Positions 7,820 through 29,110 of a stretch of DNA of 31,107 bases are shown here, in pieces. Under the pieces are notes generated by a model. It saw only the letters and a program-made list of their open reading frames with translations, was not told the origin of the DNA and searched no databases. Both the position numbers and the translations under genes were made by a program. Source of the stretch: Eubacteriales bacterium (GTDB lineage: Bacteria > Bacillota > Clostridia > Oscillospirales > CAG-272); NCBI GenBank assembly GCA_045656725.1, contig JAZORS010000088.1:1-31107 (forward strand), read 5' to 3'. Position 1 is the first letter of the stretch. Each line of letters starts with the position of its first letter.

Positions 7820-7854
7820 TAATTTAGCCAGAGAAAAAGGGGCGCGAAGCAAAA

Positions 7855-8010
7855 GGTGATGTTCTTGACGGAGAATTTGAAAAGTGCCATTAAGTGTGAG
7901 TGTCGCATTTGACCGGTCAAACGCATTACGGGCTCCCAAACTCATATAACGACAGAAAGAGAGAACAAATCGGTTTGTAGCCGAAATGCCCTCTCTTTTT
8001 CTGTTGTTTT
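7855..8010 (+). repeat. Dispersed palindrome module, copy A
   Basis: Homologous to reverse complement of 28909-29072; TTTGACCGGTCAAA at 7908-7921 followed by a long hairpin. Confidence 0.8.
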
Positions 8011-8166
8011 TTAGTTTAGAGTTATGAGGTTATGCTCCACCGTTATGAGCTTGGGTAAACCCAAGCGTTATGATATGATTGCCCATCAAACATTAAACTT
8101 GGCGAAGCCAATCATAACGATACGAAGTATCTCATAACTCATAACTTGCCCTTGGGGCAATCATAG
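8011..8166. repeat. GTTATGA/TCATAAC hairpin array, copy 1
   Basis: GTTATGA at 8021, 8042, 8067; TCATAAC at 8112, 8132, 8139; interspersed mini-hairpins; homologous to 15711-15855. Confidence 0.85.
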
Positions 8167-8167
8167 T

Positions 8168-8201
8168 TTAGCGTGCTTCTCCGTTTCGAGAAGCACGCTA
8201 A
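8168..8201. terminator. Perfect 14-bp hairpin downstream of MATE gene (terminator or 3' stability element)
   Basis: TTAGCGTGCTTCTC-CGTTTC-GAGAAGCACGCTAA; no clear U-tract. Confidence 0.45.
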
Positions 8202-8227
8202 GCCGCGAGCGCCCCTATAAATATTTT

Positions 8228-15416: not shown

Positions 15417-15636
15417 TAGTTTTTTCAAAAAAAGTCAAAAAATATACAAAAAAGTTACTACCCCTTTGTGCAATTTGCATTTTGCATAGAAAACTCTACA
15501 AAAACGAACAGAGCAAGAATAAATCCGCTCCGTGAAAGCGGAGATTAAAATAAGAAGCTCCTGCGGCAGAATAGAAGCATCTACCACCGTGTGTCTGCGG
15601 TAGAGGAGTATGAAATTGAATATACCCACCAACATG

Positions 15637-15674
15637 AAAAGGACAGAGAATTTTTACGTTCTCTGTCCTTTTTT
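15637..15674. terminator. Bidirectional intrinsic terminator
   Basis: AAAAGGACAGAGAA-loop-TTCTCTGTCCTTTTTT. Confidence 0.75.
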
Positions 15675-15710
15675 CTTGACAAGCACTGCATTTGTAGACA
15701 CAAATACCTT

Positions 15711-15855
15711 TTTAGTTATGAGTTATAAGGATTGCTTGTGCTCACCGTTATGATGTGATCGCCCGTTTACTTCAAGCTGTGCCGAAGGCACATCATAACT
15801 TGGCGTAGCCAATCATAACTTTAAACTCGCCGTAGGCGATCATAACTGCGTAACT
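15711..15855. repeat. GTTATGA/TCATAAC hairpin array, copy 2
   Basis: GTTATGA at 15715 and 15747; TCATAAC at 15793, 15813, 15840; shares AACTTGGCG(A/T)AGCCAATCATAAC and ACCGTTATGA with 8011-8166. Confidence 0.85.
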
Positions 15856-15914
15856 GCTTTATGGCAGGTACGCCGCGGCAGGAGTTTTTTGGATTGTTCA
15901 AAAGTGTGCCCGCG

Positions 15915-24302: not shown

Positions 24303-24331
24303 ATTATACACTGTCAATTATGAATTGTCAA
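24303..24331 (-). promoter_or_regulatory. Consensus sigmaA promoter of small ORF
   Basis: TTGACA-17bp-TATAAT. Confidence 0.8.
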
Positions 24332-24465
24332 GTATTTTTTTCAAAAAAAGATGTTTTTTGTGAATTTTGCCGAAATTTGATAGAAAATTATAAAAATATT
24401 CCGAAAAATTACGCTTTTATACAAGCTAAAAACAATAAATTTGCAACACAAAAGAAAATACTACG

Positions 24466-24550
24466 TGCTTTTGCATATCTCGCACGCGAACCGTATATCG
24501 CATTGTGTAGCAATATATCGCAAATCCCGCAAGAAATTTATATCGCTGCG
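24466..24550. repeat. Half copy of ATATCG hairpin array
   Basis: TATATCGC at 24494, 24514, 24539 separated by small hairpins; TGCTTTTGCAT..CTCGC shared with ~28753. Confidence 0.7.
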
Positions 24551-24667
24551 TGATGCTCTTAACGGAGTATCACGCTTTATGCCGCGGCCTTTTTAACACA
24601 AAAATCTACATTTTATTATATATTATAAAAAGCTTTTCTGTGCGGCTCGCTTTTTGTGGCTTTTGGC

Positions 24668-28652: not shown

Positions 28653-28690
28653 CACCGCGTGTTCTCCCAAACGGAGAACACGCATCGAGA

Positions 28691-28911
28691 TAAATCCCTT
28701 GCTGGATTTTCGATATGTTGCTATCGCAACTCGATATGCCTTCGGCTCGATATGCTTTTGCATTCCTCGCCAAAGGCGAGATATGTCAAAAGCGAGAGGG
28801 ATTTATCTCATATCGAATTGTCGCGAAGCGGCAATATATCGAGCTTGAGCGCAGCGAAAGCATATCGAATTCATCTATCGTGAACATATTTCACGAAAGT
28901 GAATATATCGA
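28691..28911. repeat. TCGATATG/CATATCGA hairpin array
   Basis: TCGATATG at 28710, 28731, 28747; (C/T)ATATCGA at 28809, 28835, 28861, 28904; interspersed hairpins. Confidence 0.88.
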
Positions 28912-29072
28912 CAGAAAGAAAAACAAGAGCAAGAATAGAAGGATTTTTCTCCTTTTATTTTTGCTCTTTCTGCTTGTAATATGGGTTTGGGCTTAGCCCA
29001 TTTGCATTTGACCGGTCAAATGCGATGCTTGCACTTTTGTCAAAGTCAAAATTCTCCGCTAAGGACATCACC
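28909..29072 (-). repeat. Dispersed palindrome module, copy B
   Basis: Perfect 20-bp palindrome GCATTTGACCGGTCAAATGC at 29004-29023; homologous to 7855-8010. Confidence 0.8.
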
Positions 29073-29110
29073 CAATTCGGCGTTCGGCGCGGTTTTTTTG
29101 CGTATTTCAA

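Follow-up and report, generated by a model that had tools for sequence, protein, structure and literature searches.

Modular extragenic repeats of gut Clostridia carry mirrored Gut-1 arrays and point to 23S_rRNA_IVP proteins as candidate partners

Two composite elements in the window, each built from a hairpin array, a long hairpin and a palindrome-bearing module, are on balance best regarded as non-autonomous members of a repeat family of gut Clostridia, modular in build and spreading horizontally. The window is the whole stretch of DNA that was analysed, 31,107 nucleotides in length; it is contig C88 of G000, a MAG of 1.64 Mb in 236 contigs, with a GC-content of 44% and a completeness of 92%. 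Judging from sequence comparisons, the best candidate for a factor acting on these repeats in trans would be a non-enzymatic protein of the 23S_rRNA_IVP family (an Avd-like four-helix bundle), not a nuclease or a transposase.

Two elements with one architecture

Followed from the stop codon of the gene upstream, locus B (28657-29075, plus strand; word pair TCGATATG/CATATCGA) and locus A (8198-7855, minus strand; word pair GTTATGA/TCATAAC) present their parts in identical order and differ in the word alone. The order is head hairpin H1 (27-28 nt), left arm, right arm, short linker, long hairpin and 3' module. In the left arm a word, W, alternates with small hairpins and the arm is closed by a stem of 11-13 bp (S/S'); in the right arm it is the complementary word, W', that alternates with small hairpins. 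The long hairpin comprises some 50-60 nt of purine/pyrimidine sequence, and the module, of about 100 nt, combines a small hairpin with the palindrome and a tail that is similar to H1's 3' strand (Table 1). The first-pass annotation had described the same succession of array, long hairpin and palindrome at 28691-29072 (plus strand) and 8166-7855 (minus strand), with different words, and this is how both loci read. The loci were placed correctly, but the element is longer at both ends, taking in H1 (28657-28683 and 8198-8171) and a tail that runs to about 29075 in locus B and to 7855 on the minus strand in locus A.

A gene for a PreP-type M16 peptidase lies 5' of locus B, on which a Mrr-like gene converges; locus A has a MatE transporter gene on its 5' side and prfC after it. 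As RNA, both loci are predicted to fold far more stably than their dinucleotide shuffles (z = -9.5 and -9.3). A tRNA scan of the window detected zero tRNA genes, and an exact-protein look-up of the flanking genes returned no record. Among the public sequencing runs searched, none contained more than 18% of the locus words, and those first listed included no RNA run.

Table 1. Features of the composite elements in the window (positions are those of the window).
Feature	Positions	Strand	Remarks
Locus B, host flank stem, 5' half (ACCGCG)	28653..28659	+	Pairs with 29088-29094; overlaps the first bases of the element; weak in locus B
Locus B, head hairpin H1	28657..28683	+	11-bp stem, 5-nt loop, 100% complementary; type present in 27 complete copies
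Locus B, left arm	28687..28809	+	S/S' 28687-28699 with 28797-28809; encloses TCGATATG x3 (28710, 28731, 28747) and small hairpins
Locus B, right arm	28809..28911	+	CATATCGA/ATATCGA x4 (28809, 28836, 28861, 28905), alternating with GNA/GNNA-loop small hairpins
Locus B, long purine/pyrimidine hairpin, CAGAAAGA...TCTTTCTG	28912..28972	+	Compensatory pairs over 38 copies
Locus B, conserved 3' module	28973..29075	+	Small hairpin; palindrome hairpin 29004-29023; TIR-like end 29052-29075
Locus B, host flank stem, 3' half and T-run (terminator tail)	29088..29099	+	Inverted repeat
Locus A, host terminator stem, 5' half (AGGGGCGC)	8209..8216	-	A-rich tract before it
Locus A, head hairpin H1	8171..8198	-	27-28 nt hairpin
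Locus A, left arm	8074..8165	-	S/S' 8165-8155 with 8084-8074; encloses GTTATGA x3 (8146-8112) and small hairpins
Locus A, right arm	8021..8073	-	TCATAAC x3 and one partial word, alternating with small hairpins
Locus A, long hairpin	7953..8003	-	Inverted repeat; compensatory pairs in the family
Locus A, conserved 3' module	7855..7952	-	Palindrome 7908-7921; TIR-like end
Locus A, host terminator stem, 3' half (GCGCCCCT) and T-run	7833..7845	-	Pairs with AGGGGCGC
Third composite in the window, second type	15590..15880 (about)	-	Head hairpin, GTTATGA/TCATAAC array, palindrome, long hairpin, end
Truncated copy in the window	24330..24575	-	H1, then a GCGATAT array that breaks off after its left arm; Gut-1 match of 29.9 bits

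The array is a mirrored form of the Gut-1 motif

The Gut-1 motif was put forward in 2010 as a candidate noncoding RNA, then on record from human gut sequence alone: it consists of three small hairpins with a repeated linker of 7 nt (GUGAAAU) between them, comes from gut metagenomes and is without a known function (Weinberg et al. 2010, PMC2864571). At the gathering score an Rfam search gave no match anywhere in the window. Applied on its own, the Gut-1 model (RF01706) scores 17.3 bits (E 1.1) on the left arm of locus B (28683-28758), below the gathering score of 50, and gives no hit in locus A. Sister copies that carry the same module do match, however, with 54.7 (L006), 53.8 (L003), 51.3 (L019) and 50.1 bits (contig C144 of G000), and the right arm of one sister copy matches the model on the minus strand. 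Both loci of the window likewise have at least three small hairpins separated by a repeated linker of 7-8 nt, the word of which differs from the GUGAAAU of the model. The arm of the array is Gut-1, and the array is a mirrored two-arm variant of it, the copies at loci A and B falling below the curated threshold. The earlier suggestion that the array might be undescribed must therefore be given up: its arm is in Rfam, with sister copies at 51-55 bits.

The Rfam model, however, covers one arm and one word class. The array described here has two mirrored arms and at least 9-12 word classes, and is either embedded in a gene-less composite, complete copies of which measure 333-415 nt, or placed before IVP genes. 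Matches to Gut-1 are present in 52 of 61 genomes of the genus, with up to 45 in each and 18 in G000, and in 64 of 150 genomes of the order. The motif is scarcely mentioned in the literature that we searched.

The mirroring extends to the loops of the small hairpins. Across 29 arrays, left-arm loops are of the form T..C in 55 of 113 cases and of the form G..A in none of the 113; right-arm loops are G..A in 28 of 65 cases and T..C in one of 65. Because the copies share ancestry, these counts do not represent independent events. The arm-specific asymmetry that the first-pass annotation had noticed in locus B generalises over the 29 arrays, and means that each arm resembles the reverse complement of the other in design, the individual hairpins differing.

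A repeat family with interchangeable parts

The module has eight matches in G000, which beyond the window lie on contigs C45, C144, C7, C119, C158 and C146. Twenty of 41 relatives carry it at 2-11 copies per genome, many of these at contig ends, as expected because such a repeat breaks assemblies. Among 200 other genomes of the order it was found in five, belonging to five different families, at 87-89% identity to the window; so patchy an occurrence across families at this level of identity speaks in favour of horizontal spread.

Arrays are the commoner part. There are 22 strict two-arm arrays in G000 (0.013 per kb), compared to seven modules, and arrays are far more frequent without the palindrome module, combining with other heads and tails. 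All seven modules in G000 adjoin an array or an array remnant. In the genus an array, of one or other of nine word classes, stands directly upstream of about 33 of the 42 module copies with enough upstream sequence, and modules that lack an adjoining array are deletion derivatives or truncations. The adjacency of module and array is not chance. Mapping of the modules against the arrays, proposed at the outset as a check, thus leads us to reject the possibility that the two are independently distributed.

Heads, arrays and tails are shuffled within the family. In a second type of composite the palindrome precedes the long hairpin, so that the order of these parts is swapped. The module on C45 is 98% identical to that of locus B, yet follows a GATTTCATC array; the array on C2, whose head and tail are unrelated, looks by eye closely similar to that of locus B; and a single lineage of ATGATGTT arrays occurs with two different tails. 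Across word classes several small hairpins are kept while every copy of the word has changed (GTGAAGTT versus ATGATGTT, for example), which shows that the word evolves in concert across about eight sites. The idea of a modular, non-autonomous element with an interchangeable array word is supported by these observations: the family is gene-less with shuffled heads, arrays and tails, and nine word classes are found beside one module.

Most copies are nested in host terminators

In most copies the outer flanks are complementary to one another, with an A-run on the 5' side and a T-run on the 3' side, and vary from copy to copy. In order to judge this complementarity, flanks of different copies were paired with each other as a control. 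The stem formed by matching flanks has a median of 12 matched bases over 27 complete copies, compared to a mean of 6.9 for the mismatched control, and in 18 of the 27 copies it lies above the control's 95th percentile; locus B, with its weak flank stem, is among the nine that do not exceed the controls. The gap between flank stem and element is 0-13 nt. The ends of the element, TAGCGTGAT... on the 5' side (itself a complete hairpin) and ...ATCAC(G/C)CTA on the 3' side, can pair at about 8-10 of 11 positions, and a folded element would for this reason prolong the terminator stem.

PreP orthologs in other species have plain terminators with the element absent; those compared in the search for empty sites are 31-52% identical at the protein level. 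That search, in a collection of species that are too distant from one another, yielded no empty site, and the flanks of one copy from G006 had zero DNA matches there. No consistent target-site duplication was present at 21 junction pairs. Orientation relative to neighbouring genes was surveyed from ORFs, and this survey is too noisy for a fixed orientation to be claimed.

A copy thus usually occupies the apical loop of an intrinsic terminator of the host, with the head hairpin and the TIR-like tail continuing the terminator stem. The interrupted terminator could still close, and termination may in this way be preserved by the nesting; insertions are probably tolerated because the nested terminator could still close.

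Arrays stand before 23S_rRNA_IVP genes

Members of the IVP family are encoded in rRNA intervening sequences and are functionally uncharacterised (PMC11270868). G000 has two genes of this family (PF05635, 23S_rRNA_IVP; scores of 88.5 and 81 bits, cut-off 33.8), and the protein has a homologue of solved structure in PDB 2RLD, whose entry comprises five chains (E 3.8e-24). Both genes are directly preceded by a full two-arm array, the W' arm of which abuts the ribosome-binding site, and the gene on contig C153 carries TCGATATG/CATATCGA, that is, the word of locus B. An IVP gene is present in 54 of the 61 genomes of the genus. For 29 of these genes enough upstream sequence is available, and 25 of the 29 have a two-arm array at most 340 nt upstream, where the base rate predicts about 1.2; downstream of IVP genes in the genus the count is zero of 30.

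The arrangement takes two forms. In the first the last W' ends 41-58 nt ahead of the start codon, and the -35 box of a sigma-70 promoter directly adjoins the word; in the second this distance is 17-32 nt and the promoter is absent. In 12-14 of the IVP cassettes a terminator precedes the array and the gene's own promoter follows it, and an array upstream of the promoter need not be transcribed. The cassettes are discrete units: one of 514 nt is 97.5% identical between two genomes, with flanks that are unrelated. The linker after the last word in locus A is the same as in IVP cassettes of the GTTATGA type, which indicates that the long hairpin and module stand where in the cassettes the IVP gene stands.

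Word classes follow the phylogeny of the proteins. Placed on a tree of 32 IVP proteins they require 15 changes, the minimum possible, compared to a mean of 23.5 after shuffling, and none of 200 shuffles gave a number as low. Plain co-inheritance of a linked gene and array is another possible source of such congruence between word and clade. Among 150 genomes of the order, 55 have both Gut-1 and an IVP gene, nine Gut-1 only, 16 IVP only and 70 neither, an odds ratio of 26.7, with a Spearman coefficient of 0.70 over 30 families (statistics that ignore shared ancestry); the IVP gene is absent from nine of the 64 Gut-1-positive genomes. Within single genomes the match between gene-less and IVP-linked words varies. 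It extends to every gene-less word class in G014 and to the most abundant ones in G050 and G000. The top class of G004 (ATATCGC, nine copies) is without an IVP-linked array among that genome's six IVP genes, and for five word classes of G000, among them that of locus A (GTTATGA), the 92%-complete assembly contains no IVP partner.

The IVP family is common in gut bacteria, in cyanobacteria, at cas loci and among rRNA insertions. It includes Avd, a pentameric, nucleic-acid-binding accessory protein of the reverse transcriptases of DGRs, which likewise belongs to PF05635. The present setting differs from a DGR: no match to a reverse transcriptase (RVT_1) was found in G000, which is 92% complete, a pair of template and variable repeats is absent, and the IVP genes stand alone, with the array upstream. 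We know of no catalytic activity of IVP proteins, and an IVP protein can therefore not by itself explain copying. The first-pass annotation had envisaged specificity variants of a trans-acting enzyme. A family of word-matched factors is plausible on the evidence above; the enzymatic part, a nuclease or a transposase, finds no such support, IVP being the candidate instead.

Structure and strand: do the elements act as RNA?

It is conceivable, but in our judgement unlikely, that the elements are structured RNAs serving the host, embedded in 3'-UTRs or terminators, where they would stabilise mRNA, tune termination or be excised by RNase III in the manner of intervening sequences, and multi-copy because they are useful. 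The predicted folds are indeed very stable (z about -9.4). The long hairpin shows many compensatory pairs over 38 copies (at one pair, for example, AU occurs 17 times and CG 14 times), and the small hairpins show compensatory changes too. Their position inside terminators and downstream of genes also speaks for such an RNA, as does the original proposal of Gut-1 as an RNA motif (PMC2864571). With RNA parameters the left arm has its better fold on the plus strand in 27 of 29 arrays, and relatives of the head hairpin, the array and the module occur in RNA-library contigs from at least three studies. These contigs, however, lack the flanking genes of the loci and are silent on transcription, strand, ends and level, so that they cannot show that the elements are transcribed.

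Against a host-serving RNA stand several features of the family. Some copies (those of C144 and L017, for example) appear, from heuristic gene calls, to be antisense to the only gene able to read into them, and in the 12-14 IVP cassettes noted above the array sits between terminator and promoter. An RNA made from one strand would not be expected to have loops in mirror symmetry, the module has zero strand preference in folding energy, and patchy occurrence across families at 87-89% identity speaks for transfer rather than vertical conservation. The preference of the left arm for the plus strand contradicts the simple reading from the GNA loops, and taken together the folding energies carry no clear signal of strand. 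An excess of G-U pairs in the RNAalifold table was considered as evidence for the plus strand and dropped, the MFE folds of both strands being similar in this respect (223 versus 233 G-U pairs).

Taken with the GNA triloops, the mirror symmetry would favour a level at which both strands count, and the putative recognition as ssDNA, as had been suggested for the array, fits this symmetry. The palindrome had been interpreted as a protein-binding site. It stays complementary while its centre changes (GAC..GTC, GTC..GAC, GGC..GCC); since pairing is kept, this fits a hairpin better than a fixed dsDNA site, and the palindrome looks more like the former.

Comparison with REP sequences and other repeats

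Copying of the elements as ssDNA hairpins by a RAYT or an IS200-type Y1 HUH transposase, as for REP, BIME or REPIN sequences, would account for the GNA-loop mini-hairpins found on each arm's own strand, for the extragenic and mosaic nature of the repeats and for the solo head hairpins in terminators, and G000 does have one Y1_Tnp gene. We nevertheless regard this as improbable. The gene in question is that of an ordinary IS200 with its own, unrelated hairpins. Y1_Tnp genes occur in 18 of the 61 genomes of the genus, compared to 52 of 61 for Gut-1, and an array lies within 1.5 kb at just one of 22 Y1 loci, a head hairpin or module at none. The first-pass annotation had advised looking for nuclease or transposase genes flanked by matching words; the Y1 loci lack such an association, and it is the IVP genes that have an array upstream, in 25 of 29 cases. 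Across the order the two-by-two counts for Gut-1 and Y1 are 23, 24, 41 and 62, with Y1 absent from 41 of 64 Gut-1-positive genomes; the suggested test of co-occurrence, over the same 150 genomes, gives an odds ratio of 1.45 for the Y1 transposase as against 26.7 for IVP.

In other respects the likeness to REP, BIME and REPIN sequences is close. These, too, are extragenic mosaic hairpin repeats, multi-copy, alternating in orientation and often situated at gene ends and terminators, and they, too, form several classes that can coexist in one genome, each associated with a protein gene of its own that lies between repeats of that class. They differ in that the partner is a Y1 HUH transposase and the REPs are about 35 nt long, whereas here IVP goes with arrays of words and hairpins, copies are nested in terminator loops and a module of 100 nt is conserved; a cognate Y1 gene flanked by the repeats, as in REP/RAYT systems, was not found. 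In location the family resembles the intervening sequences of 23S rRNA, which likewise lie in the apical loop of the hairpin of a transcribed gene with ends that extend the stem, a situation found here in 18 of 27 copies. Such intervening sequences extend the stem by inverted ends of their own, exist in ORF-bearing and ORF-less forms, and in some cases carry an IVP/S23p ORF. Their host, however, is rRNA helix 25 or 45, whereas the host hairpin here is a terminator or leader of an mRNA or tRNA, and arrays of words and hairpins have not been described for them, being a feature of the present family. By analogy, the family may be called REP/BIME-like, being a mosaic repeat to which a protein family is dedicated, and in its location it is comparable to the intervening sequences of rRNA.

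Pneumococcal BOX and RUP and the Correia elements of Neisseria are short, gene-less, multi-copy intergenic sequences with exchangeable modules and strong structure, some acting as terminators. They are unrelated in sequence; word arrays, linkage to IVP and nesting in terminator loops are specific to the family described here. That the elements are MITEs descended from a conventional DDE insertion sequence, with word arrays that would be multiple transposase-binding sites of two abutted ends, we consider very improbable: the TIR-like ends (TAGCGTGAT... and ...ATCAC(G/C)CTA) and the words inverted between the arms (3-4 versus 4-5, as at the ends of Tn7/Mu-type elements) speak for it, but a consistent target-site duplication is absent, no transposase-bearing relative or parent exists among 54 module copies and 32 IVP cassettes (gene-bearing relatives carry IVP only), the words are merely 7-9 nt in length, the selected hairpins between them have no role in such a model, and the arrays are internal to the ends rather than at them.

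Discussion

Of the explanations considered, we lean toward a mobile repeat nested in terminators, the core of which would be an array that serves as putative platform for an IVP protein. The functional core would be the two-armed array – three to five copies of a word of 7-9 nt with small hairpins, followed by the complementary word with hairpins. This array may be the cognate nucleic-acid platform of an oligomeric IVP protein, and the words would then be determinants of specificity. Where the array precedes an IVP gene and abuts the -35 box or the ribosome-binding site the arrangement looks autoregulatory. In gene-less composites the long hairpin and palindrome module would take the place of the gene, and we infer that these copies are non-autonomous derivatives which use, or titrate, the IVP protein in trans.

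A repeat of about 350 nt in the loops of terminators would be a case of a selfish repeat that inserts without breaking a signal of its host. The repeats also matter for annotation: they fragment assemblies and can be annotated in error as small-RNA genes or CRISPR-like arrays.

Rfam has listed Gut-1 since 2010 without a function. Because the motif is half of a mirrored array, because the array lies constantly upstream of IVP and because its word follows the clade of the protein, two orphans, Gut-1 and IVP, become a testable pair of protein and nucleic acid with a readable code of specificity. The link between Gut-1 array and IVP gene provides each of the two orphans with a likely partner. A further and more tentative possibility is that IVP proteins are word-reading oligomeric binders of nucleic acid, each lineage with its own word of 7-9 nt, which together with their arrays might constitute a new class of loop-nesting mobile elements, gene-bearing and gene-less, that colonise the loops of terminators, tRNA leaders and rRNA helices. 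If this is true, then a word-reading IVP would explain at once Gut-1 and the IVP family, both of them orphans, and how the intervening sequences of rRNA arose.

A second composite type

A second type of composite is present in the window and at four further places in its genome (G000), and consists of the parts of the type 1 composite (head hairpin, two-arm array, long hairpin and palindrome-bearing module) in a rearranged order. It begins with a different head hairpin, followed by a two-arm array, a palindrome (ATTTGT..ACAAATGCAGTGCTTG), which is placed before the long hairpin, then the long hairpin itself, which is terminator-like (GGACAGAGAA..), and lastly a tail that resembles the element's own head.

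Composites, partial copies, array-less IVP genes and other repeats. C, contig; L, fetched locus.
Feature	Genome	Location	Strand	Content
Second-type composite	window	15590-15880	-	
Second-type composites	G000	C2:6990-7360; C152:650-1010; C53:8230-8480; C53:11640-11900		
Truncated family member	window	24330-24575	-	head hairpin and left arm of GCGATAT array
Solo head hairpins or solo element 3' ends	G000	C176:1840-1900; C183:14190-14250; C153:26570-26610; C76:200-240		
Array-less IVP genes	G041; G060; G023; G057	L054; L056; L057; L058		
One-armed tandem arrays	G050	L147-L149; L152; L155; L157; L168-L170		
Short GGGGTTC-containing repeat (GGGGTTCGCGTATT-like)		L016; L106; L114; also L150; L154		

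Truncated copies and other repeats

The truncated copy in the window breaks off before an AT-rich stretch. Solo head hairpins and solo 3' ends stand alone within terminator loops of G000, and may be the collapse products of full elements. Behind a tRNA gene in G017 (contig C21, L002) lies a copy truncated at its 5' side; the tRNA terminator's 3' half, together with ~45 nt downstream of it, occurs twice, one occurrence preceding the element and one following it.

The one-armed arrays of G050 comprise 4-10 tandem copies of AGTTATG or CATAACT, with neither a complementary arm nor an IVP (23S_rRNA_IVP, PF05635) partner in this 99%-complete genome. In some copies the GGGGTTC-containing repeat interrupts the module's first small hairpin; it occurs in tandem runs elsewhere too. 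In other species of the genus, this same position at the gene end, downstream of orthologs of PreP, the M16 peptidase gene, is taken by other, unrelated structured repeat families (L026, L034, L047 and L048).

IVP genes with and without arrays

A lower-scoring IVP subfamily in G004 (L202 and L203, on contigs C2 and C10), with frames of 126-150 aa, also has two-arm arrays upstream; their word, GTATGTAAT/ATTACATAC, is less uniform, and they were overlooked by exact-word detection, so that 25 of 29 IVP genes with an upstream array is a conservative count. We compared a gene-less array in G000 (C158:270-560) with the sequence downstream of the IVP gene of L060, a cassette from another genome: some 45 nt beyond the array comes the same tail as is found after the stop codon of IVP in L060. 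The gene-less array looks like a cassette that has lost its ORF.

Upstream of four IVP-cassette arrays (L074, L062, L061 and L081) are tRNA-gene terminators that share a conserved apical core, TTTGTC-TACC(A/G)-GACAAA, within variable surrounding stems. The core belongs to the palindrome family of the module, and here lies 5' of the array; GCATTTGCC-AT-GGGCAAATGC is similarly placed upstream of an array on contig C46 of G000.

The array-less IVP genes form a separate clade. Four tandem 7-nt words (e.g., TTGAAAG/TTGAAAA) lie 5' of the ORF and their complements 3', together making a stem of ~28 bp that encloses the gene, an arrangement that resembles an rRNA intervening sequence. At L057 and L058 this unit has a promoter on one side and a tRNA gene on the other.
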